Shown: positions 2,377-24,900 of the stretch, piece after piece
Numbering within the stretch: the stretch's first letter is position 1
Layout of the letters: every line of letters begins with the position of its first letter
Assembly: GCA_965216875.1 (NCBI GenBank)
Contig: OZ244207.1
Span: forward strand, 3,552,001 to 3,616,000
Origin: Rubripirellula sp.
Lineage (GTDB): Bacteria > Planctomycetota > Planctomycetia > Pirellulales > Pirellulaceae
DNA: 64,000 nt
Reading direction: 5' to 3'
Made by a program: the position numbers and the translations under genes
The notes under the pieces: model-generated
The model's input: the letters and a program-made list of their open reading frames with translations, nothing else
The model's database searches: none
What the model was told of the DNA's origin: nothing

Positions 2377-2552
2377 GTAGCTATCTTCGCCAGAAGGTGG
2401 TCGCGGTGGTGAGAGGCGCGAGAGAAGACTCCGCCTGAAGGCGGTACTACGAACTTGGCTACCGAAGAAAGCCCGGCCGCTTACGCGATCACGGCTCAGA
2501 GGTGAGCGGCTAGGCGCGCGGGAAGATTCCTTCTGAAGGCGGTACTACGAAC
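2377..2552. repeat. REP-like cluster (families A, B-variant, G) between convergent genes
   Basis: GTAGCTATCTTCGCCAGAAGGTGG 2377-2400; CCGCCTGAAGGCGGTACTACGAAC ~2431-2454 and a variant at ~2526-2552; AGCCCGGCCGCTTACGCGATCACGGCTC ~2470-2497; all recur elsewhere in the window. Confidence 0.8.
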
Positions 2553-2567
2553 ATAGCCCGACGCTAA

Positions 2568-3179
2568 CTACCGCGTTTGGCTCACTTCGAGCACCACTCC
2601 GGCCGGGCCACAATTCTGAACTCGGCTCGGGCCGACCGACACTTGCTTTCCCCAGTCATCATGGATGTGACCACAGATGACGAGTTCTGGTTTCTTGGTT
2701 TCGACCGTCGATCGAATCGCTTGGCTTCCCCGCACGCGTCCCGAAGCGTCATGGTCGACCGTATCGATTGGAGGCGAATGAACGACCAGCACGCCACCGT
2801 CCCCGCATCCTTCTAACATCGCCGCGGCTTGTTGTTCATCAAAGTCGTAGCTCCAGTCACCAAAGGGCGTCACCGGTATTCCTCCACCGACGCCCCAAAA
2901 CGAGACACCGTCGAGTTCACATCCGTCACCGTGCAACACGGTCGCGGTCGCCCAAACTTTGGCTGCCTCTTTGAGCTCTTCGGCCGATTCGCCATTGCCC
3001 GGAACAAGCACGGCAGGTTTGTTGATCGCGGCCAGGATATCGAGCGTGTCCGCCAAGCCTGATCGCCGTATCGCAAAATCACCAGCACCGACCACCACGT
3101 CGACATCGGCCGCAAGCTCAACAAGTTTCTCAGCCGCCGATTTGTCGCAATGCAAATCACTAAAACAAAGTAGACGCAC
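2568..3179 (-). CDS. Calcineurin-like metallophosphoesterase (Icc-like)
   Basis: Motifs FSDLH, GAGD, VPGNGE, VHSPP, CGHIH; probable GTG start at 3179 (ORF extends to 3209). Confidence 0.9.
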   Translation of the reverse strand: MRLLCFSDLHCDKSAAEKLVELAADVDVVVGAGDFAIRRSGLADTLDILAAINKPAVLVPGNGESAEELKEAAKVWATATVLHGDGCELDGVSFWGVGGGIPVTPFGDWSYDFDEQQAAAMLEGCGDGGVLVVHSPPIDTVDHDASGRVRGSQAIRSTVETKKPELVICGHIHDDWGKQVSVGPSRVQNCGPAGVVLEVSQTR

Positions 3180-3399
3180 GCCAAAGATCCTTTTGCGCGA
3201 TTCGAACAACCAAAGAGAACGACCGGTAATTTAATGGAATGCGCGTCCGCTTCCCACGGTCGACTCGGTCAAGAAGAGGTGCTTTTGCGCCGATGCCGAA
3301 ACGCGTTGGGCAATGGTTTGCTTGGCGGGTGCCAATCCCCTACCTTTGAAGGAGGCATTCGGCGAACTCTCTTCGCCCGACACTTGTCATAGCGATCAG

Positions 3400-4032
3400 A
3401 TGAACGTCGAATCAACCACACCGCTAGCCGACTTTACACAGTTGCTTCTGGAGGAAGGACGTGCGTTGACTCGTGGTGACCTTCACCTGGAGCGGGCGTC
3501 CGAGGCGGATCGCGAAGCAACGGCAATGTTCCTGGTGACTGCAAACGAGCAAGCCGTCTGGGACGCGCCGTTTGCACCACCCAGCTTCAATGTCGAGGTC
3601 GCGGTGTGGAGCGCCGAGGCGTTTGCGTGGGCGTGTGGCATGCTGATCGATCGCGCGGAAACCGACACCGCCGTCCCCGACTGGCTCGCGAAAAAGGTGC
3701 CGCAACCCAATGATCCTTCCCATCATTGGTCGGTCGACCTGGTGTTTCGATTCGGTCGAGATCTTTTCCAGCGTTCAGCGCGACTGGCTGAAGAGGACGC
3801 GTTCCACAAACACCTTTCAGATCTGCTGTCAGCGTGGCCCCTGGCTTGTGTCGGAACGCCGATCGAGAACCCAAACGCGAGCATTGGTGTCCTTACACAG
3901 CATCCCTGCTTGCGAACCCTTTTCATCGAGCGGATCGTTCTCGTCCATGATTCGGAGCGAGCGGCAATCGAACAACTTGCCGACGAGTTTTCGATGCTCA
4001 TTGGCGCCCATCCAGAGCTAGGCATCCAGTAG
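3400..4032 (+). CDS. bpX4-like protein of MoxR-vWA-beta-propeller ternary system
   Basis: Helical ~210 aa with AVWSAEAFAWAC, WSVDLVFRF, LSAWPLACVG, LFIERIV, LIGAHP; lies directly upstream of MoxR ATPase. Confidence 0.7.
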   Translation: MNVESTTPLADFTQLLLEEGRALTRGDLHLERASEADREATAMFLVTANEQAVWDAPFAPPSFNVEVAVWSAEAFAWACGMLIDRAETDTAVPDWLAKKVPQPNDPSHHWSVDLVFRFGRDLFQRSARLAEEDAFHKHLSDLLSAWPLACVGTPIENPNASIGVLTQHPCLRTLFIERIVLVHDSERAAIEQLADEFSMLIGAHPELGIQ

Positions 4033-4056
4033 CAAGCCGCAACAAGGAGATCACTG

Positions 4057-5217
4057 TTGAGCGAACCCGCGAACCAAACCCCCGAACTTGGCACGCTCGC
4101 ATCTCGGCTACGCGCAAGTGTCTTGGAACCCATCAAACAATCGCTCGTCGGCAAAGACGAGATCGTCGAAGTCCTCGGGGTCGCACTCGCGGCTGGCGAG
4201 AACGCGTTTTTGTTAGGTCCTCCCGGAACCGGAAAAAGCGCACTGGTTCAGGAACTTGCCGCCCGGCTTTCGGGACGTTCGTTCGACTACCTGCTCACCC
4301 GGTTCACCGAACCAAGTGAACTCTTCGGTCCGTTCGACTTGAGGCGGTTGAAAGACGGCGACCTCGTGACCAACACCGAAGGAATGCTCCCGGAAGCGGA
4401 CTTCGTCTTCCTTGACGAATTGCTCAACGCCAATAGTGCCATCTTGAATAGCCTGCTTTTGGCATTGAACGAACGGATCTTTCGGCGCGGTCGCGAAACG
4501 GTTGCCTTACCGATGCTTTTAGCAGTCGGTGCCAGCAATCGGTTGCCCGATGATGATGCGCTCGAGGCGTTGTTTGACCGATTCCTTTTGCGCGTCGTTT
4601 GCGACAATGTGGAAGACGATGGATTGCAGTCTGTTTTGGAAGCAGGCTGGCGGCGCGAGCAAAAGGGAACGATTGATTCGACCATGAGCATCGACGATGT
4701 TCGATCACTCACGCGTCAAACCGGCACGGTCAACCTGACCCCGGTTGGCCCTGCCTACTTGCAGCTCATTCGACAGCTGCGCAAGGCGGGCATGCCGATC
4801 AGCGATCGCCGAGCGGTGAGGTTGCAACGCGTCGTCGCCGCAAGCGCCGTGCTTTGCGGCCGCAGCGTCGCCGACGTTTCCGACCTTTGGATTCTGCGCT
4901 ACATCTGGGACACCCCAGCTCAATCGGAAATGCTTGCCGCCCAGGTTGCGTCAGTGACCGACCAATTCGCCGATTCGGTCGAAACCAAAGAGCAGCAGCG
5001 CCACCCCCTTTGCGACCATCGCGCCGGTGCCGATCCTGAACGCCTCTCTCAAGCAATCGACGCCGTGTTGGAGGAATCGAATCCGGCCGCCGCGTCCGAC
5101 CAACTGTGCTTGCTTGCGGCGCGGATCGAGTGGGTTGAACAAGAACAGAAGCGAGAACACTTGCGCGAACGTATCGAACAAGCTCGCCGCTCGCTGGCCA
5201 AAGACGGTGTCGCGTAG
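4057..5217 (+). CDS. MoxR/RavA-family AAA+ ATPase
   Basis: Walker A GPPGTGKS, YLLTRFTEPSELFGP, Walker B FLDE, NSAILNSLL, GASN, ALFDRFLLR, ISDRR. Confidence 0.95.
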   Translation: MSEPANQTPELGTLASRLRASVLEPIKQSLVGKDEIVEVLGVALAAGENAFLLGPPGTGKSALVQELAARLSGRSFDYLLTRFTEPSELFGPFDLRRLKDGDLVTNTEGMLPEADFVFLDELLNANSAILNSLLLALNERIFRRGRETVALPMLLAVGASNRLPDDDALEALFDRFLLRVVCDNVEDDGLQSVLEAGWRREQKGTIDSTMSIDDVRSLTRQTGTVNLTPVGPAYLQLIRQLRKAGMPISDRRAVRLQRVVAASAVLCGRSVADVSDLWILRYIWDTPAQSEMLAAQVASVTDQFADSVETKEQQRHPLCDHRAGADPERLSQAIDAVLEESNPAAASDQLCLLAARIEWVEQEQKREHLRERIEQARRSLAKDGVA

Positions 5218-5229
5218 GCGAGTCGAGAG

Positions 5230-5973
5230 ATGAACGTTTGGCTTCAACTCGAACCACATGTCACGCCCCAGGACCTGACTTTGTTGTTGTCCACCTCGGC
5301 CGAGTTTGCGGTGGACGATGCAGGTGATCGCTGGGTCCGCGCAACCGCGACCACCGACAACGCCGCATCGCTGCTGAGTCAGATTCCGGGCACGCGTTAC
5401 CGTTGCGACGGCCAATGGTTGATCCAATGGGGTTCGTCGGTGGCAACCCAACGCGTACCGAACAGCCTTAATTGGCAGCCGTTGTCGAAGGTGTTTTCCG
5501 TTCAGTTTCCACCAGCGGCAATGGCGGGATCGTCGTCAACGTTGCCGAAGCAGACGTTGACACTTCGTCGTGGCGGCCAGCCCCAACAACCTGCCGCGGC
5601 AATTGTCGATGTCGCGTTGCTCAAAGCTTGGTGTGACCGAACAAGTAACCTTCGTCTGCGTCGTCTGCGGTGGGCGCTGCGTGAAAGTGAAGGGTTTGCT
5701 GACGAAGGCTTGGTCATGGGATGGCCACTCCCCAACCTCTTACCAGCCAAGTTTTTGTGTGCTCAAAAGCGTGTCCTGATCCCGTCCGGTTTCGAGTGGT
5801 TCCCCAAGCTCGATGCCGACGACGTCCTCGATCTCTTTCAAGTGCCCGAACACTGTTGGTTGGTTTGGGAACGACCACAGCAATGGAGCATCGTTGCCGA
5901 CGATGCGTTGGTTGCGCTGCGGCGAAGCAGCATTCGCAAAGTCTGTAGTGAGCAATCGGTCCAGACCGAATAG
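5230..5973 (+). CDS. bpX2-like protein of ternary system
   Basis: RWVRA..IPGTRY, WQPL..FPPAAMAG, RLRRLRWA, GWPLPNL, IPSGFEWFP motifs; operonic between MoxR and vWA genes. Confidence 0.65.
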   Translation: MNVWLQLEPHVTPQDLTLLLSTSAEFAVDDAGDRWVRATATTDNAASLLSQIPGTRYRCDGQWLIQWGSSVATQRVPNSLNWQPLSKVFSVQFPPAAMAGSSSTLPKQTLTLRRGGQPQQPAAAIVDVALLKAWCDRTSNLRLRRLRWALRESEGFADEGLVMGWPLPNLLPAKFLCAQKRVLIPSGFEWFPKLDADDVLDLFQVPEHCWLVWERPQQWSIVADDALVALRRSSIRKVCSEQSVQTE

Positions 5974-5974
5974 C

Positions 5975-8812
5975 ATGAATCACATTGCCCCAACCATTCC
6001 CGATTACCTTCGACCGCCCTGCGACCAGCTCTGGCGTTGGGAAGACAATGGAGATGCCGCAACCTGGTGCGATGACCATGGAACGATCGCGTTTCGGTCC
6101 CAGCTTGAGCAAGTGCTTCGGCAAGTCGTTTCCGCGCTCGATGGTTTGCCGTCGTTGACCTCGGTAATGCTTGTTGTTGATGCGTGCAACGGGCATGTTG
6201 ATGAAGCGATCGTCCATCGCCTTTGGAATCTGAGCGACGCGAGATCTGAAAGCCTTTCGGTTGTGGTGGGTGATTCCAACGAGATCAGTGAAAGCCTTGA
6301 TTCCATTACGGAGATTCGGAATTGGCTTGAAGCGATCGCGCGGCTGCCGGGCGATTTGCGGAGCGGCGTGTCGGCGCAAGCTTCATTGATCACTTTTTCG
6401 CTCCAAAACGCTCCGCGTTCGACATTCGAAGTCGAACAGCAAGCAGCCGTGTCAATGATCGACCGGCTTGCCGTCCAGGGCGAGCTTCGCGATTCGAATT
6501 GGGCCGATGATGCGGAGGGTTTTCGAAACGGGCATCGCTGTCGTCATGCCATTGCCAATCTGCGATTGATGGCGCAACACCGTGTCGATGCCGATGCCCT
6601 GCGACTTTGGAAATCGGCGGGCACAGATCAAGTGCCCGAGGGACTGGACCCACTCTCGAATCATGACGACGAGCCGACCACACTTCGCCAGACACTTGAG
6701 GAGCTGGCCGGCGATGACCTCTGGGGCAGTGTTGCGCAAACCGCACTCGACGTTGCCAGTTGGTTGTCGCTACCGCGTCGTCCGAGCGATCCTGATGTCC
6801 TGCCCGTCGGTGGCGTTTCGGATGTGACCAACCGCGGTGACCCCGAACGTCTGTTGATGACCGAATTGGCCCAGGAACCACTTGCCATGCTCGCGCGCAT
6901 CGCCTCGGGACAGGCGTTGTACTTGCGACGCGAAACTCCGCCGGGTCCGTCACCCGATTTCCGCCCAGTCTTCCTCGAATCAGGCATCCGCACCTGGGGT
7001 TCACCGCGTTTGGAAATCGCCTCCGTCGGTCTCGGCATCGCTGCTTTGGAAGAGTCGCGCACTGGGATGGAGATCAAAATCTTGAGCGTCGCTGGCGACA
7101 AAGCGACGGTCGAAGATTTCTCCGGTCGTGACGGGATCATCGAGCATCTCGAACGGCTTAACACGGCGCCGCATCCAGGCGAAGCGATGATCCAATGGAT
7201 GGACAAGGCGTGTCAGCTCGATCAACCGATTGCGGACCCGATCATGGTCATCACGGCCGCCACGGACCGCGATGCCGAGTTTCGCCGTGTCACGAGCGAG
7301 CTACCGTCCGGATTCCTTGTCGTTCGTATCGAAAGCGACCACTCGGCAACGCTGCTTCGACGCACGCCCCTGGGCGACGAATCGCTGCAGAGCCTTTCCC
7401 TTCAACGTCAACAGCCAAAGCCACAACCCAAATTGGCGGGTCCTTCGCCCAACCTGCGCATCACCGACTCGTCGTTGGCTTTGTTTTTAAACATGAATCC
7501 GTGCCCTCTGCGATTCGCTGATTCGCTCGAAGGCAAATGGGCGGGAGCCTCAGCCTCGCTCGTCACGCCGGGCCTGTTTTCGATCACTTCGGACAAGCGG
7601 CTCCTTTGGTTCCACGATTCAAACCTCGGAGCAAGGCAATTGGTCGACCGTGTTCCGTCGGACGTCGTCCGCGCACAGGAACTCAATGGCGACGAAGCGT
7701 CTTTGGTTGTCGGCGCGACCGGCGCCCCGCAACATGTGCTCAACGTTTGCGCCACCACCGGCGAGATCACTTGCTTGCAGCTCCCCTCGGCGTCCGGCCC
7801 GGCAACCTACGTGTTTGATCAGGGTTCGCTCTTTCGAATCGGCAACCAGATCGAGCTGATTGACCGCCACACTGGCGAAGTGATCGACAAAAGCAACAAT
7901 CGGCTGACGCACATTGGCGGTCCCGTCTTGGGAAGTTCCCAACTTCACGTGATCGCCAACGGTGGCAATCAAATCGTCACTCATCGGATGACCGATCCCT
8001 TCAAACCGTCTTCATGTGCCTACCTTGCGGTCCGAAACAGCGACGGCGTGCTGGTTGTCATTGACCGCAACATGCAACGGTGTGTTCTCGATGCACAAGC
8101 TTCGACGGAAACCGGCGTGGATCAAACCCACCATCCACTCTTGGGTCCTCTCAAACTTGCTTACCAAAGCTCAAACAAACAGACCGTTGTGATCGAAGGA
8201 TCCCGTTCACCAAACCCTTACACTCCCGATCACCAGCGAGACAATCGGCGAGTTTTGAATCTAACAACGGGGCAGGTCAAGGTTCCCATTGTCCGGAGTT
8301 CCAACCTTCTTCACTTGGTAAGCGAATTCGATCCCGTGCTCTCTGGCCTTCAGCAAACACGCAACCTGCTGATCCGGTTGTCGGGGGTTTCTTTTGAGGG
8401 TGAGGATTTCTTTGTCGTGATGAAGCGTGGTCGACGACGTCAGCTGGTCGCGAAACCGGAGCGGAACCGAATGGTAATCGAGCCTACCGTCGGGTTAGCT
8501 TACCGCTACCATGCGTTCTCGAGAGCGACGCGCATTGAAACTCGGGCTGGTGCAACACAATGGAAGCTGCGCACGACGACCGTCGGTGCCAATCGAATCA
8601 CAGCTGACTCGCGCGGCTTGTTGCATCTTCGCCGCGGCGACGACAGAAGCGAAATCACTTTGATGCTGTACGAATCTTGGTTGAGTGGTTGGACAAGCTG
8701 GGGTGCCAAGTTTGGTGACCCTTACTTTACCGGCGAGCCCCAGTCGGACCTTGATGCCGACGTCGTCCTCTGGCTGAAGGAGTTTGCAAGACAATGCAGC
8801 CAATTGAGCTAA
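5975..8812 (+). CDS. bpX0 / vWA-like / beta-rich / bpX1 core protein of ternary system
   Basis: LPVGGVSDVTNRGDPERLLMTELA, ALYLRRETPP, FLESGIRTWGSPR (vWA-like strand), C-terminal DSRGLLHL..EITL..GWTS.G..FGDPYF; start moved to ATG 5975, 1 nt after the upstream stop. Confidence 0.75.
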   Translation: MNHIAPTIPDYLRPPCDQLWRWEDNGDAATWCDDHGTIAFRSQLEQVLRQVVSALDGLPSLTSVMLVVDACNGHVDEAIVHRLWNLSDARSESLSVVVGDSNEISESLDSITEIRNWLEAIARLPGDLRSGVSAQASLITFSLQNAPRSTFEVEQQAAVSMIDRLAVQGELRDSNWADDAEGFRNGHRCRHAIANLRLMAQHRVDADALRLWKSAGTDQVPEGLDPLSNHDDEPTTLRQTLEELAGDDLWGSVAQTALDVASWLSLPRRPSDPDVLPVGGVSDVTNRGDPERLLMTELAQEPLAMLARIASGQALYLRRETPPGPSPDFRPVFLESGIRTWGSPRLEIASVGLGIAALEESRTGMEIKILSVAGDKATVEDFSGRDGIIEHLERLNTAPHPGEAMIQWMDKACQLDQPIADPIMVITAATDRDAEFRRVTSELPSGFLVVRIESDHSATLLRRTPLGDESLQSLSLQRQQPKPQPKLAGPSPNLRITDSSLALFLNMNPCPLRFADSLEGKWAGASASLVTPGLFSITSDKRLLWFHDSNLGARQLVDRVPSDVVRAQELNGDEASLVVGATGAPQHVLNVCATTGEITCLQLPSASGPATYVFDQGSLFRIGNQIELIDRHTGEVIDKSNNRLTHIGGPVLGSSQLHVIANGGNQIVTHRMTDPFKPSSCAYLAVRNSDGVLVVIDRNMQRCVLDAQASTETGVDQTHHPLLGPLKLAYQSSNKQTVVIEGSRSPNPYTPDHQRDNRRVLNLTTGQVKVPIVRSSNLLHLVSEFDPVLSGLQQTRNLLIRLSGVSFEGEDFFVVMKRGRRRQLVAKPERNRMVIEPTVGLAYRYHAFSRATRIETRAGATQWKLRTTTVGANRITADSRGLLHLRRGDDRSEITLMLYESWLSGWTSWGAKFGDPYFTGEPQSDLDADVVLWLKEFARQCSQLS

Positions 8813-11754
8813 CACTCGCCCCCAACCCTCAGCATCGCGGACAGGACCAAGTCGTCTCCACCTCGTGTGCAGCGATGGTTTTCCGCTCGGCGCACGAGAC
8901 GGTCGGTGCGTTACTTGCAAGGATCATTGCGACCGAGAGCTTGCGTGAGGGCACACTCTATCCGGTCCCGACTAGCCGAGACGATATCACTTGCGCCGGT
9001 ATTGTTTGGATCAACAAGGATGACGAAGCGCGGGTCGACTGTTTACCCGATGCGATCCCTTTGTACAAACCAGCGTCCGATCTCGAGATTTGGTTGCCGC
9101 GGTTAAGTCAAATCGCCCCCGCGTTGCCAAGTGGAATGTTGCGAGATGCCGCGGCCAAGGATCAACTGATCCGCGTCTGGCTACCCCATCTCGGGCTGGT
9201 TGGTTTTGCCAAAGACGATGCGATTTGCGCGCGTGATTGGGTCACCACCGCAGATCGAGGCAGCGCCAGACCTTGGTCGATGCCACCGGAAACGTGGTCG
9301 CCTCCCCAACACCTTTCCGAGCTGTCGATGTTGCAGCCACCATCGCTCGAATCGTTTCTGTCAGGTCTTCAAAGTGAGCTTGGCCCCTCCGACGAGCGTT
9401 TGATCGACGTTGACAGCGATGGAATAGCAGAAACGCCAAACCCCGCCGGAAAAATGCGAGGTTGGGTCCTACGCAAACTCGACCAACTTGCCGAGTTCGG
9501 CCGGTCCAAAAAGAAACCTGACGAAGAAAGCCAATCCTCAGGGAAACTTAGCGAGAAAAACAAAAACCCAGCCTCCGGTGCCGCCGGTGCTGCAGCGGCG
9601 GCCGGTCTGGCAGGCGCCGCTGGCGCTGCCGGTGCGGCGGCAGCCATGGGCAAAATGCTCGGCAAGATATCGGCTCCGATGGCGGCCGCCATGTCACGAA
9701 TGATGCAAGGTGAGCGCGAAGATCAAATCGAGAAGTTGCTCAAGATGATGAGCAAGAATCCTGATGAAGCACTCAAGTACGCGATTCCTCTTAACAGTCT
9801 TGCGGAAACGTTCCGTGGTTTCTCGATGCCCGGCGCAGCACTCACCTCGCGACTGACCGATTTCTCGATGGGGTCGTTGTTTGGTGGCGGCAGCGCGCCT
9901 GCTGATTTTTGGTCGATCAACCACGATCTGCAAATGAAGCTGCAGCAGAAGTATCGCGAGCAAGCCAATCGCGAGATCGCAGCGGGGCGTTATCGTCGTG
10001 CCGCCTACATCTTTGCCCACCTTTTAGCCGACCTGCGCGCCGCCGCTTCGGTACTTGAACGGGGAAAGTTCTATGCCGAGGCTGCAGTGCTTTACCGTGA
10101 CAAATTGCATGACAAACCTTCAGCAGCGCGGTGCTTCGCATCCTGTGGCATGTACGTCGAAGCTTGCGAGCTCTTCCTTTCGATGAATCAATACGAGCGT
10201 GCTGGTGAAATCTGGGTCTCGGCGGAGGAGCCGGACCGGGCTCGCGAGATGTTTGAACAGGCCTTCCGTAATTACAAGAGCCAGGGCGCGATCGTCTCGG
10301 CAGCCAAAGTGCTTGACGCACGATTGCAGCGCCGCGATGAAGCGATCGAACTGCTGTGCGACCAATGGCCGACTGGACCAGATGCCCAACAAGGTGCGCT
10401 GCTCGCGTTTCAATGGATGGGGGAAGACGGTCGTCATGAACAGGCGGATCGCACGATTCGTCAAATGCACGAGTCCTCGGTGCCGCACTACCGAGCCAAC
10501 TTTGCAGCGCTCGCTGCCGATACCGCCAAACGCTACCCTGATCGAACCGTGCGTGAGATCAGCGAAGACCTTTGCCGATTGAGTGCCGCGTCTTCACTCA
10601 AATCGGGCGCTCCGATCGAACGCAATTCCGTGCTTGAGTCCCTTGGCGAGCTCACACCTTCGGACCCTCAGCTCAAACGCGACGCGATCCGGTTTGCAGA
10701 TCAACAGCGCGAGCGGGAAAGAGCCCAACAGTTACCAAGGAAGAAACCTAAACGAGGAGCGCCGCATCATCTTGGTGATTGGGATCTTCCCCCGGACTAT
10801 CGTTACCTTGGTTGTCGCGCAGTCGAGCACTGGAACAGCCAACAACTTGTTGTCATCGCTGCCCGCAACCAAAGTCTTGTACTGCGGCGAATTACGAACA
10901 CAAAGCGATATAGCGTCGGCGAAGTCACGACGCCGATTGCACTGCGTCGAGATGCCGATTCGATATCGGCAAGCGATATCATGTTCGGCAAAGTCGGTGA
11001 CTCGCCGCACGATCGCTCGATATTGCGCGTCGAAGTCTACGCGCCCATCATCGAGAACGGGGTCAGCCAAGCGGCTTCCTTCCCCATTGCTCGACTACAA
11101 GCCAAGCGTAGTGATCAAATCGTTGCCGTCGCCTGCGGCCCCGATGATGAACCATGGGAGCTGAGCTTCGATTCGCAGTCGCTTGAGCTACGTCATCAAC
11201 ACCACCGCACCTATGACCTGACCGAACATCTCGTCGAAGCGGTGACGGCGAACCCGTTTGAGCAAGTTCTTGAAGATGACGACTTGTCCAGCGGCGGAAT
11301 GCGTTTCACTCTCGCCGTCGCGGCGGGCTGGCCAGTGATTGGTATCAATCGCCACCTCTTTGAACTTCGCCGCGGTGAGATTGTGGCTCTCGACGTCATC
11401 ACCGGTGAAATCAACTACCTTGCACCTTCGCCTCGACACAGCCGCAATCGAGTCGCGATTGCACATGATCGCGGATTGGACGTCATGTATTTGGATGTCA
11501 ACGAATCGGTGTCGGTCTGCAGCCACCGATCCTACGAACGAGTGATTTGGGCTGGTCAGGGGCGAATCGTCGCAATCAGTGGAACGACGCTGCACTCCTT
11601 TGAATACGACCAGACGCGTTTCCGCCCAACGGGACGTGCCCACTTGAAACGCCCCGACGGGGAAACGTCTCCGATCGAACTCCTAGCGTTGAACACGGAC
11701 ATTGTGGCGGTCGTCTGGACCAACGGATCGATCGCTCGTTATCTTCTACCGTGA
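8794..11754 (+). CDS. bpX3-like N-terminus + TPR/helical repeat + beta-rich C-terminal domain protein of ternary system
   Basis: REDQIEKLL..NPDEALKYAIPL, YREQANREIAAGRYRRAAYIFAHLLADLRAAASVLERGKFYAEAAVLY, TPR-like helices, beta-rich last ~340 aa; overlaps upstream gene by 19 nt. Confidence 0.7.
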   Translation: MQPIELTLAPNPQHRGQDQVVSTSCAAMVFRSAHETVGALLARIIATESLREGTLYPVPTSRDDITCAGIVWINKDDEARVDCLPDAIPLYKPASDLEIWLPRLSQIAPALPSGMLRDAAAKDQLIRVWLPHLGLVGFAKDDAICARDWVTTADRGSARPWSMPPETWSPPQHLSELSMLQPPSLESFLSGLQSELGPSDERLIDVDSDGIAETPNPAGKMRGWVLRKLDQLAEFGRSKKKPDEESQSSGKLSEKNKNPASGAAGAAAAAGLAGAAGAAGAAAAMGKMLGKISAPMAAAMSRMMQGEREDQIEKLLKMMSKNPDEALKYAIPLNSLAETFRGFSMPGAALTSRLTDFSMGSLFGGGSAPADFWSINHDLQMKLQQKYREQANREIAAGRYRRAAYIFAHLLADLRAAASVLERGKFYAEAAVLYRDKLHDKPSAARCFASCGMYVEACELFLSMNQYERAGEIWVSAEEPDRAREMFEQAFRNYKSQGAIVSAAKVLDARLQRRDEAIELLCDQWPTGPDAQQGALLAFQWMGEDGRHEQADRTIRQMHESSVPHYRANFAALAADTAKRYPDRTVREISEDLCRLSAASSLKSGAPIERNSVLESLGELTPSDPQLKRDAIRFADQQRERERAQQLPRKKPKRGAPHHLGDWDLPPDYRYLGCRAVEHWNSQQLVVIAARNQSLVLRRITNTKRYSVGEVTTPIALRRDADSISASDIMFGKVGDSPHDRSILRVEVYAPIIENGVSQAASFPIARLQAKRSDQIVAVACGPDDEPWELSFDSQSLELRHQHHRTYDLTEHLVEAVTANPFEQVLEDDDLSSGGMRFTLAVAAGWPVIGINRHLFELRRGEIVALDVITGEINYLAPSPRHSRNRVAIAHDRGLDVMYLDVNESVSVCSHRSYERVIWAGQGRIVAISGTTLHSFEYDQTRFRPTGRAHLKRPDGETSPIELLALNTDIVAVVWTNGSIARYLLP

Positions 11755-12107
11755 TGACCGAGCGTTCGAACCCACCCGCCAAAGACCACCGCCGCACGAT
11801 TGTGCTGGTACTGGCTATCGTTCTACTGACCACCTACGTGTTTTCCTCGTGGTCCAATCTTGGTGGCGCTTCGGGAGAATTCACGCGAGCGGCGAGTGGT
11901 CGAATCGGATTGTTATTGATCGCACTCTGGCTAGCGTGGCCATCGCTTCGCCGTCCAGCAAGCTGGTTGCCGCCCGGCATGGCGGTCGCGGGTGTGATCA
12001 CCCTTGCCGTCCTCGCCGCCCAACCCAAGTTGATCATCGCCGCAGTGCCAGCATTCTTGACCCTATTGACCGTCGCCGGGTTTGTGCGAGCGTTCAAACA
12101 GAAATAG
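11751..12107 (+). CDS. Small integral membrane protein (about 4 TM)
   Basis: Hydrophobic segments; GTGA start/stop overlap with upstream gene. Confidence 0.75.
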   Translation: MMTERSNPPAKDHRRTIVLVLAIVLLTTYVFSSWSNLGGASGEFTRAASGRIGLLLIALWLAWPSLRRPASWLPPGMAVAGVITLAVLAAQPKLIIAAVPAFLTLLTVAGFVRAFKQK

Positions 12108-12132
12108 GTTGCTGCGAGAACTGGCGGAGCCA

Positions 12133-12397
12133 GTAGCTACCTTCGCCAGAAGGTGGTTCTTGTGTGACCGTGCCGGATCTGTGTCGCTGTCGCTCCTTGA
12201 TCCGGCCTACGAAAGATTCCGGCTAAAGCTCGGTACTACGAACTGGATCCCGCCCCGTAGCTACCTTCGCCAGAAGGTGGAAGGCGATCACGGACGCCTA
12301 TCACGAAAGTCACGAGAAGGCTTGGTGCGTGCAAGCACACACCCTACGGCCTTTCCTTGCCGGATCTGTGTCGCTGTCGCTCCTTGATCCGGCCTAC
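12133..12397. repeat. REP-like mosaic cluster (families A x2, B, C x2, D)
   Basis: GTAGCTACCTTCGCCAGAAGGTGG at 12133 and 12257; TGCCGGATCTGTGTCGCTGTCGCTCCTTGATCCGGCCTAC at 12171 and 12358; AGATTCCGGCTAAAGCTCGGTACTACGAAC at 12214; GGTGCGTGCAAGCACACACCCTAC at 12324. Confidence 0.9.
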
Positions 12398-12405
12398 GCC
12401 GACGC

Positions 12406-15945: not shown

Positions 15946-18900
15946 TCAAACCTGTTGAAGCTTCTTGGCCTTGCGTTCCATCATCTGCTCGAGCGTCTCG
16001 CTCTTGCCCTTCATTCCCTGCATGATGGTCAGCGGGTCAATCGCTTGCCATGCGGGCAGCTGGGCAAGCACGCCCGAAAGCACAAATCCGCTTCGGATCG
16101 CCCAGGCAACGTACCCAATCGTCACACTCGATGCCGCGGCGCCAGCAAGCCCGACCGCGATGATGTCTTGTTGAATGTGCGACTCAACTTTTGCTCGTTG
16201 TAGGTCCATGCCGTCCCACATTGCCCCAGACTGACTCATCAATTCGAAGTCGAGCTGCTGAAGCGCCGTCATCGCGACCTGCTCCTGAAGCGTAAGCTCA
16301 CTTTGAATGGAACGCGAGCCACCACCCGATTCGGTCGTGAGCGTGGTACGCCATTGATCAGCGATGTCAAAGTCGAAGCTCGTCGAGACCAAGAAGACAT
16401 CTTCGCCAGCCTTCGTCGGCAACAACACGAACAGCTCGTCATCGTCGTCATCGTTGGGAGAGCCAACCGCCCCCGAGCCACCGCTGCTCGAATCGGAACT
16501 GCCACCTGAACCGCTGTCGCTATCGGAATCCGAATCCGAATCGTCATCTGAATCGGAGTCATCATCGGAATCACCGTCGCCGTCGCCGTCGCCGTCATCA
16601 TCGGGATCGGGATCAGGGTCCGGGTCGGGATCAACATCGGGGTCGGGTGTCACAAAGATGGCCGGCTGGACGTCGATCGTGATCGTTCCCGTTCCACTGG
16701 GAACTGTCCCATCAAACGCATTCCACTGGAATGAGTCAGTCCCGACAAAGCCGTCATCAGGCGTGTAGGTAAAGGAACCGTTGCCATTGAGCGTCAACAC
16801 GCCGTTGGCTGTCGTCAGGACCAAACCAGCTGTCAACACATCGCCGTCGACATCCGACGCGAGTGAATTGAACAGGCCGGTGTTGACCGTCAGCGTGTTT
16901 CCGGTGACGACGGTCACCGTCGAGTTGGCAAGGGTCGGAGTGTCATTGGTACCGGTGATGGACGCGCCGAGTGCCCGCATCGCGCCACCGAAGGGACTCG
17001 ATGCGGTCGGTGTCGACGTATCGACCATCTGGCGAACTTGGGCACCCGCCGTAGTCGAGAATGCGCCGGCGTAGGAATCGTCCAGCCCACGCATCGCCAA
17101 TCCGTTCGGAGTGCCTGCAAAATCGGCGACGGGAACGAATCGCACAAGCGAAGCTGCGGCGATCGCAAGCCCATTGCCGCTGTCGTTGACCGAACCGATG
17201 TTGAACCAGTTCGTCCCGCCGTTGCTACTGTATTGCCAAACCCCTTGGCTTGATGCGTTTGCCGTGTTGCCAACCACCACCACTCCGGCAAACGACGCTC
17301 CGGCATCAGGATCCACAAACGAGCCGCCGAAGAGGGCTGCGATGGTGTTGCCGGCTGGATTGAAGTCATCTTCAACGGTGGGTGCTAAACCGGCGTTTCC
17401 AATCGTGGGGGCATCATTGATCGACGCCGCGTCCACCGACGTCCCCGAATTGATCGCCGCGCCACCGTCATCAACGGTGATCGTAAAGGTCGTCAGGACC
17501 GAACCGCCGACCCCCACCTGATTTTCGGTCGGCTCAAAGTTCAGCAGACGGATCGCCGTCTGAGCCGCCGCTGGCGTCGTCGATGCCAACGTGTATTCGC
17601 CGAATCCCGTTTTTGTGAATCCACTTGCAACCAGGGATGCGACGGTGAACCGCCCATTTGCATCACCACTGCTGAGTTGAACCACCACGGAAACATTGTC
17701 GCTCTCGGCGTCATTGATCGTGATCGTCGAAAACGGAGTGATCGTTTGGTTGTCGGCAACCAATTGCCCAGCAACATCTCCGCCAATCGTCGGCGCGGCA
17801 TTGGCCGTCACCGAAGTACTTAAGGTGGTCGTCGGATTACTGAACGCAGCTTGGCCAGTCGGCGTCGAAGTGTCGACCGTTTGCCGCGTCTGAGCACCTG
17901 CTGCGACGGAGAATGCGCCCCCATAGCTGTCGTCGAGACCGCGAACGACCAGGTTGGTGGGAACGCCATTGAAACCAAGCACGGGAACGAAACGAACGTG
18001 TGACGAAGCCGATACCGCCAGTCCGTTACCAACGTCGTCAACGGCTGCAATGTCGTGCCAGTTCGTACCGCCGTCGGTTGAATACTGCCAGCGTCCCTCG
18101 GTGACCGGGTTGGCCGCGTTGCCCACCACAACAATGCCGCTCAAAGATGATGAGGCATCGCCGTCGCTAAACCCACCACCAAACAGACTCGAAACGGTTG
18201 CCCCCGGTCCGTTCTGATCGTTTTGTGCGATCGCGGCAAGTGTCCCGCCCGTCATCGTCGGCGCGTCGTTGACACTCGTGGCCGTCACGTCAGTCGTTGA
18301 GTCGGCCGTTGGTCCCGTGCCATCGTCGACCGTGATCGTGAACGTCGTGACCACGGTTGATCCCGCAGCCACTTGATTCTCGGTTGGATCAAAAACCAAT
18401 TGGCGAATCGCCGTTTGTGCTGCTGCCGTGGTCGTCGATGCGAGCGTGTATTCACCAACGCCGGTCTTTGTGAAACCACTGGCGACCAACGAAGCAGCCG
18501 TGAATTGGCCGTTGGCGTCTCCGCCCGAAAGGGTCACCACCACCGAAACGTTGTCGGCATCGACATCGCCAATCGTCACACTGGCAAACGGAGTCCCCGT
18601 TGCATCGTCGTCGATCGAAATGTCACCGACGCCACCGATGGTCGCCAAGTCGTTTTGGGCGTTGACCGTAGTGGTAATCGTTGCCGTTGGATTACTGAAC
18701 GAAGCGGTCGCTGTCGGCGTCGACGTGTCGAGCATTTGACGCGTTTCTGCACCAGCCGTTGTCGAGAAGGCGCCACCGTAAGTATCGTCTAATCCTCGAA
18801 CGACCAAGTTCGTCGGAGCGCCGTTGAAGTCGCCCACAGGAACAAAGCGAATCATCGAACCAGCTGCGATCACCAAGCCATTGCCAGTGTCGTTGACTGT

Positions 18901-21900
18901 GCCAATGTCAAACCAATTCGCACCACCGTTACTGGAGTATTGCCAGGCGCCTTCGGTCGTCGGATTGGCAGCATTGCCAACCACGGCGATACCCGCGAAG
19001 CTCGACGAGGCATCAGCATCACTGAACGCCGCGCCAAGCAAGTTGGTGACGGTGTCGCCGGCAGGGTTGGTGTTGTCTTCATTGATCGCCGCAAGAGTCC
19101 CGCCTGTCATCGTCGGTGCGTCGTTGACACTCGTGGCCGTCACGTCGGTCGTTGAGTCGGCTGTTTGTCCCGTGCCGTCATCAACCGTAATCGTGAACGT
19201 TGTGACTACGGTTGATCCCGCAGCCACTTGATTCTCGGTTGGATCAAAAACCAGTTGTCGAATCGCAGTTTGAGCTGCTGCCGTGGTCGTCGATGCAAGG
19301 GTGTATTCACCGACGCCCGTCTGAGTGAAGCCACTAGCGACTAGCGAAGCAGCCGTGAATTGCCCGTTGGCGTCGCCTCCAGAAAGCGTTACGACCACCG
19401 AAACGTTATCGGCATCGACATCGCCAATCGTAACACTGGCAAACGGAGTCCCCGTCGCGTCATCGTCAATCGAAATGTCACCGACGCCGCCGATGGTCGC
19501 CAAGTCATTTTGGGCGTTGACGGTTGTTGTAATCGTCGCCGTTGGATTACTGAACGAAGAGGTCGCCGTTGGAGTCGACGTGTCGAGCATTTGCCGCGTT
19601 TCTGCACCAGCCGTTGTCGAGAAGGCGCCACCGTAAGTATCGTCTAATCCTCGAACGACCAAGTTCGTCGGAGCGCCGTTGAAGTCGCCCACAGGAACAA
19701 AGCGAATCATCGAACCAGCTGCGATCACCAAGCCATTGCCAGTGTCGTTGACTGTGCCAATGTCAAACCAATTCGCACCACCGTTACTGGAGTATTGCCA
19801 GGCGCCTTCGGTCGTCGGATTGGCAGCATTGCCAACCACGGCGATACCCGCGAAGCTCGACGAGGCATCAGCATCACTGAACGCCGCGCCAAGCAAGTTG
19901 GTGACGGTGTCGCCGGCAGGGTTGGTGTTGTCTTCATTGATCGCCGCAAGAGTCCCGCCTGTCATCGTCGGTGCGTCGTTGACACTCGTGGCCGTCACGT
20001 CGGTCGTTGAGTCGGCTGTTTGTCCCGTGCCGTCATCAACCGTAATCGTGAACGTTGTGACTACGGTTGATCCCGCAGCCACTTGATTCTCGGTTGGATC
20101 AAAAACCAGTTGTCGAATCGCAGTTTGAGCTGCTGCCGTGGTCGTCGATGCAAGGGTGTATTCACCGACGCCCGTCTGAGTGAAGCCACTAGCGACTAGC
20201 GAAGCAGCCGTGAATTGCCCGTTGGCGTCTCCGCCCGAAAGGGTCACCACCACCGAAACGTTATCGGCATCAACGTCGCCAATCGTCACGCTGGCAAACG
20301 GAGTCCCCGTTGCATCATCGTCGATCGAAATGTCACCGACGCCGCCGATTGTGGGCAACGTGTTTCCTGCCGCGTTGACGGTGGTCGACAGCGTATTGGT
20401 CGCGTTGCCAAACGGCGAAGTCGCAAGTGGAGTGGACGTGTCGACCGTTTGACGAGTTTCTGCGCCGGCTGTGGTGGAAAAGGCGCCGGCAAAGGAATCA
20501 TCGAGGACGCGAATGACGAGTGCTGGCGGGTTTCCGTTGTAACCCGTAACTGGCAGAAATCGAACGAGGGTTGCGGCCGAGATTGACAGACCATTGCCAG
20601 CGTCATCGACCGTACCGATGTCGAACCAGTTCGTGCCACCGTTGCTTGAATATTGCCACGCACCTTCGGTCACGGGATTGGCCGTATTCCCGACGACCAC
20701 CATGCCGCTCAAGCTCGCCGCCGTGTCGCTGTCGGTGAGTGTGCCACTAAAGAGCGAGTCGACGCTCGCCCCTGGCGGATTGGTATCGTCCTGGTTGATG
20801 GCAGCAAGGTTTGCATTGCTGGCCGAGGGTGCATCGTTGACACTCGCAACCGTCACGTCCGTGTTGCTGTTGCCCACGCCACCAGTGCCATCGTCCGCGA
20901 TGATCGTGAACGTGCTAACAACGTTTTGTCCTGATGCGACTTGGTTCTCAGTTGGGTCGAACACAAGCGCACGAATCGAAGCCTGAGCGACCGACGTGGT
21001 ACTTGATCCAAGGTCGTAGACACCGGCGCCTGTTTTCGTGAAACCGCTCGCGATCAGCGAAGCGGCTGTGAATTGCCCGTTCGCGTCACCGCCGCTAATG
21101 ATGACTTGAAGCGTGACGTTTTCGCCGTCAGCCTCGCCGATAGTGACTGTCGAGAACGGGTTTAGCGTCGCATTGTCGTCGATATTCGCATCCGCTGTGT
21201 TATCGATTGCGGCTGGGTCGTTGACAGGCGTGATGGTGGTCGACAGGTTGACTGTCGAATTGCTAAATGAGCTGGTCGCTGTTGGGGTCGATGTGTCAAA
21301 CGTTTGACGGACCTCGGCTCCCGAAGTTGTCGAAAAACTACCGCCATAAGTATCGTCCAAACCTCGAACGACAAGGTCTGCAGGTGCTCCGTTGAAGTCT
21401 TCGACAGACAGAAAACGCAACGACGAACCTGCCGCGATCACGAGGGCGTTGCCGGTGTCGTCGACGCTGCCGATATCCCGCCAACTCGTGCCGCCATCGC
21501 TGGAGTATTGCCAGACACCTTGAGTGGTCGGGTTGGCAGTGTTTCCAACCACGGCGATTCCCAAAAAGCTTGACGTCGCATCGGCATCCGCAAAACCTGC
21601 GCCGAACAGATTGGTCACCGTTTCGCCAAAGGAATTGGTCGTATCCTCGAGTACCGCAGCAAGCACCGCACCGGTCATCGTCGGGGCGTCATTGATACTC
21701 GTGGCCGTAACATCGGTCTGGCTGTCGCCCGTGTTGCTCGTGCCATCGCCAACGGTCAAGGCGAACTTCGTCGCGACGTTGCTTCCCGCGGCAACTTGAT
21801 TTTCGGTTGGATCAAAGACGAGCTGACGAATCGCTGCTTGGGCGGTGGCAGCGTCTGTCGAGGCGAGGCTGTATTGCCCAACTCCGGTCTTCGTAAAGCC

Positions 21901-24900
21901 ACTTGCCACTAAGGAAGCGCTGGTGAACAGACCGTTGTCGTCACCGCCGATCAGGTTGATCACGATCGAGACGTTGTCGCCGTCGGCATCATCGATCGTC
22001 ACCGACGTAAAGGGAGCGACGGTCGCGTTGTCATCAACAGCCGAGTCGCCCGTCCCACCGATTTGCGGCAGATCGTTTTGGGCGGTGATCGATGTCGAGA
22101 GCGTCGTCGTGGCAACGCTAAACGCCCCGCTCGCCGTTGGCGTCGACGTGTCAAGCATCTGACGGGTCTCGGCACCCGCTGTCGTCGAAAAGCTGCCTGC
22201 ATAGGTGTTGTCCAAAGCACGCAGGGTCAAGTCGGTCGACGTTCCATTGAAATTGGCGACGGGCAAAAAACGAACCAAGGTGCTGGCGGACAAAGTCAAC
22301 GCATTGCCGGAATCATTGACCGACCCGATCGCGAACCAGTTCGTCCCGCCATTACTCGAGTACTGCCACGCTCCCTCGGTTGTCGGATTCGCAGTATTTC
22401 CAACCACCGCCACACCGCTCATGCTTGACGTCATGTCGGCGTCAGAAAACCCGCCGCCAAACAAGTTGCTGATCGTGTCGCCGGCGGGATCGGTATCGTC
22501 TTCATTGACCGCCGTCAGATTGCCTGTCGTCACGGTTGGCGCGTCATTCACACTGGTCGCCGTCAAGTCGGTCGAGTTGTCGTTGACCGGACCGCCCCCA
22601 TCATCAACGCTGATCGTAAACGTGGTGAAGACGTTCGAACCGACCGTGACTTGGTTTTCCGTCGGATCAAAGACGAGCTGACGAATGGCGGTTTGAGCCG
22701 AAGCTGCCGTCGTCGAACTGAGCGTGTATTGGCCGAGCCCGGTTTTCGAAAAACCACTCGCAACCAAAGACGCGGCCGAGAATTGGCCGTTGCTGTCACC
22801 ACTGCTGACGGTGACCACGACCGTCACGTTGTCGCCATCGGCATCTGCAATCGTGACCGCGGAAAAGAGCGTTGAGGTTTCGTTGTCATTGATCGCGTCG
22901 TCCGCTGCGCCACCAATCACGGGCGCGTCGTTTTGCGCCGTCACGCTGGTTCCCAAAGTCACCGCAGGGTTGCTAAAAGGCGATGTCGCTGCCGGCGTTC
23001 CCGTATCAAGCGTTTGGCGCACCTCGGCGCCAGCGGTCGTTGAAAAGGAGCCCGCATAGCTGTCGTCTAACCCGCGGACCGAAATCTGTGTCGGTGTGCC
23101 GTTGAAATGTTCGGCCGGTAAAAACCGAATCGACGATGCCGCGGCGATCACCAATCCGCTGCCCGAGTCATTGACCGTCCCAATGTCAAACCAGTTGGTG
23201 CCGCCATTGCTGGTGTATTGCCAAAGCCCCTCGGTTGTCGGATTTGCGGTGTTGGCGACCACCACGACTCCGCTAAGCGAAGAGGACGTATCGGCGTCGC
23301 TGAAGCCACCACCGAACAGACTTGTGATGGTTGCTCCGGGTGGATTGGTCGCGTCTTCCAAGATCGAAGCAAGGTTGTTTGCCGTGATCGTCGGCGCGTC
23401 GTTGACGCTGTTGACCGTAAGATTCAGCGAATCGAATGCCGGTGCCGTTCCGTCGTTGACGGAAACGGTAAAGGTGGTGACGACATTGGATCCGGCTGCG
23501 GCTTGGTTTTCGGTGGGGTCAAACACGAGTTGGCGGATCGCCGATTGTGCTGCCGCTGGCAGCGCCCCGGTCAGGCTGTATTGGCCGGCGCCCACCTTGG
23601 AAAAACCACTCGCACTCAACGACGCCGCAGTGAAGACTCCGTTGGCGTCACCACCGGAAAGGCTGATGTTGACCGTCAGGTTGTCGTTGTTCCCGTCGGT
23701 CAGTGTGGTTGCAGCAAAAGGATTGACCGTCGCGTTGTCGCCGATCGTGTCGTCCGGCATTCCCCCAATGACCGGTGCAACATTTGGCGGCGCGCCGTCG
23801 TGCTCGATTTGCACGTTGTCAATGAAGAGGTAGTCGTTGCCCTGATTAAAACCGCTGGTGTTAAAACGCAAACGCGTGTCGTTGTCGATGTAGGCGGTCA
23901 AGTCAATGTTGCCGCTGCCGGTCATCACACCATCGGCGCCAAGGTTATTCAAAACGCCTGGCCCCACTTCGTTCCAAACGCCGCCCCCGTCGGTCGAAAT
24001 CTCGATCATCGCTGTGTCACCAGCTTCGGTATCGATCCGAGCGAAGTCGAAGGTCAACGTTGCGTACGTAGCACCGGTCAGGTCCACTTCCCGCCAGATC
24101 GTATTGGTGCGTCCGATGAAAAGGCCATCATTGCCCAACGTGTTCCCAACATAAATCGTTCCAACCGTCGGCCCATTTCCCTCCGTATCTTCTTGCCAGT
24201 CGTTCGCCCAGTTCTGCGTTCCGTCGTTGTTGTCAAAGGCCGTTGCATTGAACTCATCGCGAACCGTTTCAATCGGCAGCAGGTTGACCCAATTGGCCTG
24301 GAGCGTCTGAGAAAAAGCGATTTCCGTTTCGATCGAACCAACGGCGAATTCAAGATCCCAGTCGCCACCCAACGTTGCGTGCCCGGTGTCGTCCGAACTG
24401 GCCGCGACATCCGCCCCAGTCAGTGCAGCCAGCGAGTGGGTGAATTGTTGCCCGGATGGAGTCTCCGCGAAGTCGCAACCGTAAATCAGAATGTCGGCAC
24501 TCGCGGTTAGCGCTGATTGCCAACTCGCGATCTGGCCGGCATAGCCATCCAATTGGCCGTCGCCGAGCAACGTGTTGCCGAGCTTGAGCGAGTCGCCAGT
24601 CGAGTGCGAAACGAGATGCAGTGAAGCGATGTCGCTGCGTCCGTCCAAGATCTCGGTGATCTGGTCGACGCCGTCGCGATCCGAATCGAGTACGAAGACT
24701 TCGAGGTTGCGAGTCGACGCATGCAGGTCATCGAGCAGTTGCTCGAGGTCGTTGACCGATCCATCGATGACCACAAGCTCTTTCGGGGCAACTTGCACGA
24801 GTGTAGGGGTTTGCCCTGAGAAGTCGACGTCCGAATCCTCTGGCGGCGCAATCGCCTCGTCAGCAACACCAAGGGCTCCGTCACCGCCAGCCATCATCGC

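Follow-up and report, generated by a model that had tools for sequence, protein, structure and literature searches.

The stretch of DNA analysed here, hereafter the window, comprises 64,000 nucleotides of the planctomycete Rubripirellula sp. (GenBank assembly GCA_965216875.1, contig OZ244207.1, positions 3,552,001 to 3,616,000 of the forward strand). Its positions 3400 to 12107 hold six closely packed, co-directional open reading frames (ORFs), the first five of which make up a cassette of a MoxR ATPase, a vWA-like adaptor, a scaffold protein termed bpX3 and two accessory proteins. This cassette is a five-gene member of the beta-propeller ternary systems (Kaur et al., 2020, PMC7159879). What is new is that the metal site of the vWA-like domain is remodelled and that, by structure prediction, the adaptor likely takes hold of the scaffold encoded in the cassette itself rather than a host or phage target. 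A preliminary description, made from the sequence alone, had listed all six reading frames, and their coordinates, lengths and spacing (24, 12, 1, -19 and -4 nt) were all confirmed on the plus strand. The five cassette genes, in window positions, are as follows.

3400..4032, plus strand: bpX4 gene, 210 aa from the ATG at 3400 (possible upstream ATG at 3313), PF19920 at 130 bits
4057..5217, plus strand: MoxR gene, 386 aa, PF20030 at 315 bits
5230..5973, plus strand: bpX2 gene, 247 aa, PF19918 at 142 bits
5975..8812, plus strand: vWA adaptor gene, 945 aa, PF19915 (bpX0) at 51 bits and PF19917 (bpX1) at 38 bits, cut-off 27
8794..11754, plus strand: bpX3 scaffold gene, 986 aa, PF19919 at 52 bits

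The family calls for the cassette are scores over the curated Pfam cut-offs, and together with the related loci they bear out the previously proposed order bpX4-MoxR-bpX2-bpX0/vWA/bpX1-bpX3/TPR. Of the families that had been named for checking, bpX0 to bpX4 scored above cut-off, as did bpMoxR, and Pfam VWA was unmatched; neither VWA nor TPR found a match among the window's own proteins. AlphaFold models show the beta-rich parts to be propellers and the repeat part a solenoid. In a second strain, from an independent study, positions 2568-12157 lie on a single contig as a gap-free block of 9.6 kb with 162 differences, and the cassette genes are therefore real and intact. A scan of the locus for promoters and terminators gave no excess over shuffled sequence. 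The Pfam scan of the six window proteins returned no nuclease, peptidase or TIR family, and PADLOC models at E 1e-10 matched none of the six. The lack of a recognisable effector reported earlier thus stands as a fact but not as a surprise, since PMC7159879 states it for the whole class: the locus is an intact member of a five-gene class that had already been catalogued, and the missing effector is a published trait of that class. Literature searches turned up no experimental study of the MoxR-vWA-beta-propeller class, as the preliminary description had also remarked.

The small membrane gene at the right end had been counted as a sixth component and as a possible output of the system. The features that bound the cassette are these.

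2568..3209, minus strand: calcineurin-like metallophosphoesterase (PF00149), divergent left flank, outside the cassette and marking the insertion site
11751..12107, plus strand: 118-aa membrane protein gene, outside the cassette, a resident planctomycete gene overlapped by the cassette's final stop codon

The 118-aa gene occurs in 31 of 61 genomes and the bpMoxR clade in 6 of the same 61, and 27 of the 31 carry no full-length match to the cassette's MoxR clade; in two cassette-bearing genomes the gene lies on another contig, and in two more it was not found with the query used. In a genome of the same genus (G001, 84% complete) the metallophosphoesterase ORF lies 88 nt from the membrane gene, with the other flanks in order and the cassette absent, and in a genome of another genus (G016) the two genes are likewise adjacent around an empty site. 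The probable history is thus that the cassette was inserted into a site that was ancestrally empty. Among 80 related loci the membrane gene stands beside the cassette at one (L104), and the metallophosphoesterase likewise at one; genome G002 shares the window layout, and L104 and G002, which show an identical layout, were counted as one. The membrane protein, which matched no Pfam family above cut-off, was accordingly rejected as a component, the system being one of five genes, and as an outsider to that system it is ruled out as the output of the family.

In several genomes of the family Pirellulaceae (L069-L071) the 118-aa gene lies near genes for a BON-domain protein and a 213-aa protein, possibly a conserved envelope locus; in G001 the BON-domain gene (L068:13711-15089) is broken into two frames, perhaps by an assembly error. 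Intergenic repeat elements at window positions 2377-2567 and 12133-12400 (a 25-mer found 107 times and a 40-mer found 22 times exactly in the genome) border a wider block, outside the insertion limits of the cassette.

In the MoxR protein GPPGTGKS serves as Walker A, FLDE as Walker B, N161 as sensor 1, R175 as the arginine finger and SDRR as sensor 2. Apart from a Gly/Ala alternation in Walker A (16 G, 42 A), the catalytic residues are invariant in 58 of 58 relatives, and judged by these residues the catalytic set is intact. The bpMoxR model scores 315 bits here, against 204 for an FtsH-type MoxR paralog in the same genome (33% identical) and at most 61 for the genome's other ATPases. The protein is 76% identical to its nearest relative, and its closest solved relative is RavA (E 1e-45 across residues 24-295). 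The adaptor, modelled by AlphaFold2 with a mean predicted local distance difference test (pLDDT) of 84.7 and a predicted template modelling score (pTM) of 0.56, divides as follows.

Adaptor residues 1-263: helical bpX0 region
6764..6958, plus strand, residues 264-328: flexible conserved segment, the most conserved stretch of the adaptor, directly ahead of the first vWA strand
6959..7399, plus strand, residues 329-475: vWA-like alpha/beta domain with remodelled metal site, the predicted bpX3-binding face
Residues 513-792: beta-propeller
Residues 800-945: bpX1 region

Segment 264-328 has a mean column identity of 0.58 and shares 97% of its residues with the nearest relative, where the other domains reach 35-59%; it shows low pLDDT when the adaptor is modelled alone, and its motif is common to the ivWA protein of the FtsH ternary systems (E 3e-6). 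By analogy with characterised MoxR partners, this segment may be the "finger" that engages MoxR. In the following domain E-S-G-I-R replaces the DxSxS of a vWA metal site and is succeeded by W341-G342-x-x-R345. Among 54 relatives, column 335 is D or E (35 and 19), G occupies column 337 in 50 and R column 339 in 51, and W341, G342 and R345 are present in 54 of 54; among further representatives, WGxxR recurs in 149 of 150 and is preceded by D/E-x-G-x-R in 147. Canonical magnesium binding is thus unlikely at this site. The strand and helix order of residues 329-475 in the model fits a truncated vWA fold, an assignment made from topology and weak homology. Searches of the region against PDB sequences found no match up to E 10, and no NCBIfam or Pfam model of the ViaA family matched it.

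The scaffold protein bpX3 (mean pLDDT 78.8, pTM 0.50) is organised as listed below.

bpX3 residues 1-150: alpha/beta N-terminal domain
Residues 151-299: disordered, variable linker with an Ala/Gly-rich stretch
Residues 300-645: TPR-like solenoid
10555..10704, plus strand, residues 588-637: last solenoid helices, immediately ahead of the propeller, predicted docking site of the vWA face
Residues 652-986: beta-propeller

The bpX3 propeller gave a fold match of Z 23.8 (root-mean-square deviation, rmsd, 2.7 over 271 aligned residues) and that of the adaptor one of Z 13.6 (rmsd 4.1, 246 aligned), and the two propellers resemble each other weakly. The linker averages an identity of 0.15 across the family; 6 of 47 members carry a clear transmembrane helix there (hydropathy of at least 2.4), and 17 of 47 show strong amphipathicity, where about 2 would be expected. 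Towards the end of the solenoid, D630 is kept in 47 of 47 members and D624 and L627 each in 45.

A metal-site face rebuilt around invariant residues should bind a constant partner, and for this reason the adaptor (residues 1-480) was modelled with bpX3 (residues 295-645), a pair picked from conservation ahead of any complex model and run beside three controls. The complex scored 0.73, and the best of the three controls 0.00; of 157 solved complexes 116 attained the score mark, as did 2 of 215 mismatched pairs, counts that are rough here since own alignments were used. The runs share at least 93% of contacts, with a partner pLDDT of at least 81. Adaptor residues 337-346, 395-399, 429 and 454 are predicted to contact bpX3 588-637, with W341 and G342 lying on L627 and D630, and mean conservation at the interface is 0.56 against a background of 0.30 on one partner and 0.49 against 0.26 on the other. 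The adaptor's vWA face is thus predicted to dock on the end of the bpX3 solenoid, and by this prediction MoxR likely remodels its own scaffold. The gene content of the loci is consistent with such a pairing: bpX3 without vWA occurs at 0 of 59 loci, and vWA without bpX3, despite room for it, at 1 of 65, so that the two are strictly paired across loci. No conserved sixth gene accompanies the five, and hence there is no co-inherited external client. It is probable, in our estimate, that the client of the adaptor is bpX3 itself.

Taken together, these results allow the construction of a model in which the cassette would act as a self-contained, ATP-driven switch for threat response. The MoxR ring would pull on the vWA adaptor, whose face would dock on the last bpX3 solenoid helices by Trp, Gly and Arg against Asp and Leu, with no magnesium bridge. 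By analogy with NorQ-NorD, segment 264-328 may enter the MoxR pore, so that ATP hydrolysis would be levered onto the end of the bpX3 solenoid beside its propeller, and the two fast-changing propellers may sense a foreign or stress ligand. Remodelling could then release the bpX3 N-terminal domain for action at the inner membrane together with its linker, a stretch that spans the membrane in some relatives and forms a basic amphipathic helix in others, and bpX2 could serve as a paralogous partner or cap; these last two are the weakest steps of the scheme. We hold the model as a whole tentatively, at somewhat below an even chance, and a role in defence or threat sensing is predicted at about even. 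A bolder version is unlikely: that this is a closed AAA+ machine whose metal site has been exchanged for a Trp/Arg latch and whose scaffold is itself the weapon, a coat-like polymer let loose on the inner membrane once the propellers encounter an invader, bpX2 being its paralogous cap. If it held, this would be a form of bacterial immunity that needs no enzymatic effector, and its MoxR/vWA pair would act on a client encoded in the operon. The predicted latch (adaptor W341, G342 and R345 against bpX3 D624, L627 and D630) offers the class a testable hypothesis at the level of residues, and should it hold, the question of the missing effector would move from a gene in trans to the effect of an ATP-driven release of bpX3.

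Of the two accessory proteins, bpX2 is an alpha+beta protein present at 73 of the 80 loci. In profile-profile comparison the second half of bpX2 aligns over about 116 columns with the bpX3 N-terminal domain (probability 60-68%, E 8e-5 and 5e-5), a likeness that is suggestive, not proven, and that connects two Pfam families listed separately. Neither this resemblance nor the vWA-bpX3 latch was found in print, the Figure 1 source data of PMC7159879 lying outside what was covered. The all-helical bpX4, present at 69 of 80 loci, appears dispensable, being missing at about 8 loci with room for it. Against PDB sequences neither bpX2 nor bpX4 had a match better than E 0.07, and an Atlas search with bpX2 returned nothing. 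Two leads on bpX4 were dropped: a kinship with the adaptor, for which no resemblance was seen, and a weak DndB-like hint from the Atlas for a relative of bpX4, which a Pfam scan of 59 members did not support.

Across the 80 related loci the core genes present keep the same order on one strand at every locus, an arrangement that is not due to chance, and together with the bpX matches this sets aside the possibility, raised in the preliminary description, that no conserved neighbourhood would be found. All five genes are present at 54 loci, most of the others stopping at a contig edge; the nearest related loci are in records titled Pirellulaceae or Planctomycetota. The distribution is patchy, the vWA core occurring in 44 of 301 genomes of the family, with one match each, and bpX2 in 24 of 401 genomes of the phylum. 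Among clusters at 50% identity, 1,266 are related to the vWA core at E 1e-30. About 6 loci (L110, L116, L118, L127, L155, L169) hold partial cassettes with MoxR, bpX2 in five of them and bpX4 in some, which may reflect either decay or a split system. The four non-MoxR genes are 42-52% identical to their nearest relative, against 66-89% for most flanking genes (one flank gene at 51%). Mean identity across the family is 0.16 and 0.15 for the propellers, against 0.58 for the candidate finger and 0.35 for the solenoid, and by this comparison both propellers vary fast. The locus, being accessory and fast-changing, is thus not universal housekeeping, the other possibility that had been raised against the assignment, but it shows no direct signature of an arms race. 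No relative of the cassette was found in the viral contigs searched, partial matches occurred in 2 of 72,556 plasmid records, and no extra gene recurs above background at the 80 loci. Among the candidates rejected were a linked kinase (kinases near 9 of 80 loci, with about 8 expected from this genome's density), DUF1501, PSD1 and sulfatase-like neighbours, which are common planctomycete genes at varying positions, and a recent transfer, the composition being genome-like and a quick tree, which proves no transfer, setting the copy among Pirellulaceae-titled loci.

As separate observations, reverse transcriptases lie near the cassette at 3 of the 80 loci (L160:8300-9340, L103:14190-15206 and the upstream flank of L133), the retron-like one of L160, which shares the strand of bpX4, ending 30 nt ahead of that gene. 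The adaptors of L145 and L151 are 88% identical and come from records titled as distant planctomycete groups, through either misbinning or recent transfer.

The discoverers call the beta-propeller class enigmatic, take as its defining feature a propeller that follows the vWA domain in a fusion, and predict, without demonstrating, an anti-invader activity (PMC7159879); for the present copy the indirect indications of such an activity are mixed. The cassette agrees with this class (subsystem 4 of PMC7159879) in its MoxR clade and planctomycete host, probably in a divergent vWA, in a vWA component with an N-terminal helical domain, a propeller and a C-terminal beta domain (the 62% type), in a third component with a variable N-terminus, TPR and propeller, and in the extra helical and alpha+beta genes and the lack of a conventional effector. 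However, Walker A here reads GPPGTGKS rather than the frequent GxxxTAKS (16 against 42 of 58); bpX3 has no clear transmembrane helix (clear in 6 of 47), where the paper describes the variable region of the third component as containing a segment that spans the membrane; the adaptor propeller aligns over about 246 residues, exceeding the "about four blades" described; and the paper suggests a propeller-propeller contact, whereas the model here, which had no propellers in its input, predicts one between the vWA face and the solenoid. The enrichment in multicellular bacteria to which the preliminary description pointed is significant but modest for the class (44 of 118 carriers, p=0.0094; PMC7159879). 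The FtsH ternary systems of the same paper (ivWA, fvmX) share a sister MoxR clade and the pre-vWA motif, although the cassette has no FtsH, fvmX or ubiquitin-like genes. One such system lies in the same genome, 4 Mb from the cassette (L043:335-12983; G000:C1 about 7,548,300-7,561,000), in the order fvmX6, FtsH with M41 peptidase, fvmX7, MoxR, ivWA, a 257-aa ORF and a WGR-domain protein.

[quoted passage not shown] RavA possesses a C-terminal LdcI-binding region and its ViaA-type partner a canonical MIDAS. The present MoxR, with 386 aa against about 500 in RavA, matches it over residues 24-295 only, no ViaA family match was obtained and the MIDAS is remodelled, so the cassette falls outside the RavA-ViaA pair; it differs from all three systems in that its predicted client is operon-encoded and not a host enzyme. 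NorQD uses its MIDAS face to bind the client, and a finger that is proposed to transmit force sits as a plug in the pore of the ring (PMC9976466). Esr of the Actinomycetales, a distinct MoxR/vWA/propeller pathway with a variable propeller that senses epibionts experimentally and signals through a kinase, is the only related pathway found with an experimental threat-sensing phenotype (bioRxiv 10.64898/2026.09.08.750141). However, Esr includes a secreted, Ig-stalked propeller, a transglutaminase, a kinase, a phosphatase and an FHA output, none of which the cassette has; a Pfam scan found no Esr-type kinase, FHA protein, transglutaminase or secreted propeller sensor in the cassette or its flanks.

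Several results weigh against the self-contained switch and its defensive role. The vWA-bpX3 complex is a model and not a measurement, the interface conservation test shares its alignments with that model and uses a background that includes both surface and core, and client binding by the MIDAS face is textbook vWA geometry, so that part of the complex score may stem from likeness. Matches to ivWA are weak and arise in 11 of 54 relatives (best E 0.009), and fold searches gave no direct vWA structural match, propellers having filled the matches listed. The window's own linker is an uncharged Ala/Gly stretch with a marginal 19-residue hydropathy of 1.45, not clearly transmembrane, and its amphipathicity is 0.45 against a shuffled level of 0.60. 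At the partial loci the DNA fetched contains no vWA, bpX3 or remnants of them. The ratio of nonsynonymous to synonymous substitution rates (dN/dS) is below 1 in every domain with measurable dS, including 0.45 and 0.67 for the propellers of the closest pair, and positive selection was not detected, dS being saturated in most of the 9 pairs. The composition is fully genome-like (66th percentile of 300 random genome windows) and therefore points to long residence. A defence-island context was rejected, as about 2 ORFs among the 227 in the flanks appear specific to defence (one retron-like reverse transcriptase, one methyltransferase-like) and the remaining matches are generic kinases and enzymes, in a set of longest-ORF calls, some spurious and the long ones cut to 600 aa, that had no matched control.

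Some of these observations lend weight to a niche-specific chaperone or assembly machine like RavA-ViaA or NorQD, in which bpX3 would be a permanent co-adaptor, the MoxR/vWA pair would remodel a membrane or enzyme complex of the host under stress and the propellers would vary by relaxed selection. Such a machine would account for the absence of defence-island context, of dN/dS above 1 and of a foreign composition, for RavA being the closest solved relative and for the single copy in each of the 44 matching genomes; moreover, those MoxR/vWA pairs that have been tested are assembly chaperones. However, a co-inherited client gene is lacking, bpX3 is predicted to fill the client-binding face, and neither the restriction to 44 of 301 family genomes, at unrelated sites and with partial cassettes, nor the low identity of the non-ATPase genes relative to most flanks fits it well, and we regard it as rather unlikely. 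An alternate scenario would have bpX3 polymerise on the inner membrane through a TPR region of IFT-A/Gemin5 type as a coat-like scaffold for membrane repair or containment, with MoxR-vWA as its disassembly motor. The best natural matches of the solenoid profile are indeed IFT144/WDR19 (E 5e-8 to 1e-5), with Elp1 and IFT122 weaker, TPR_GEMI5 is matched by 5 of 47 bpX3 members, and the transmembrane and amphipathic linkers would suit such a coat. However, many TPR proteins are also matched, generic TPR and designed repeat proteins scoring almost equally, and the solenoid-then-propeller order of bpX3 is the reverse of that in protocoatomers, which leaves this scenario improbable. The cassette could further be a sensor-only module with its output in trans, for example in the FtsH ternary system or one of the genome's 97 Ser/Thr kinases. 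The presence of that FtsH system in the same genome, the 17% overlap between the beta-propeller and FtsH classes (PMC7159879) and the kinase signalling of Esr argue for it; yet 4 of the 6 genomes with the cassette's MoxR clade have no FtsH-type MoxR match, so that supply by an FtsH system is not obligatory, and kinases are no denser near the loci than expected, all of which renders it decidedly improbable. It is barely credible that a six-gene system has its effector in the 118-aa membrane protein: the 4-nt overlap with the bpX3 stop and the position kept in G002 speak for it, and by the same evidence the gene is probably co-transcribed here, but its occurrence in mostly cassette-free genomes, the empty sites of G001 and G016 and its adjacency at a single related locus stand against it. 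The switch acting on its own scaffold is thus the reading we tentatively prefer.

Elsewhere in the window, a protein of 3039 aa encoded at positions 15946-25065 on the minus strand combines DUF4347 and cadherin-like/Ig domains with long internal repeats and is probably a surface adhesin.

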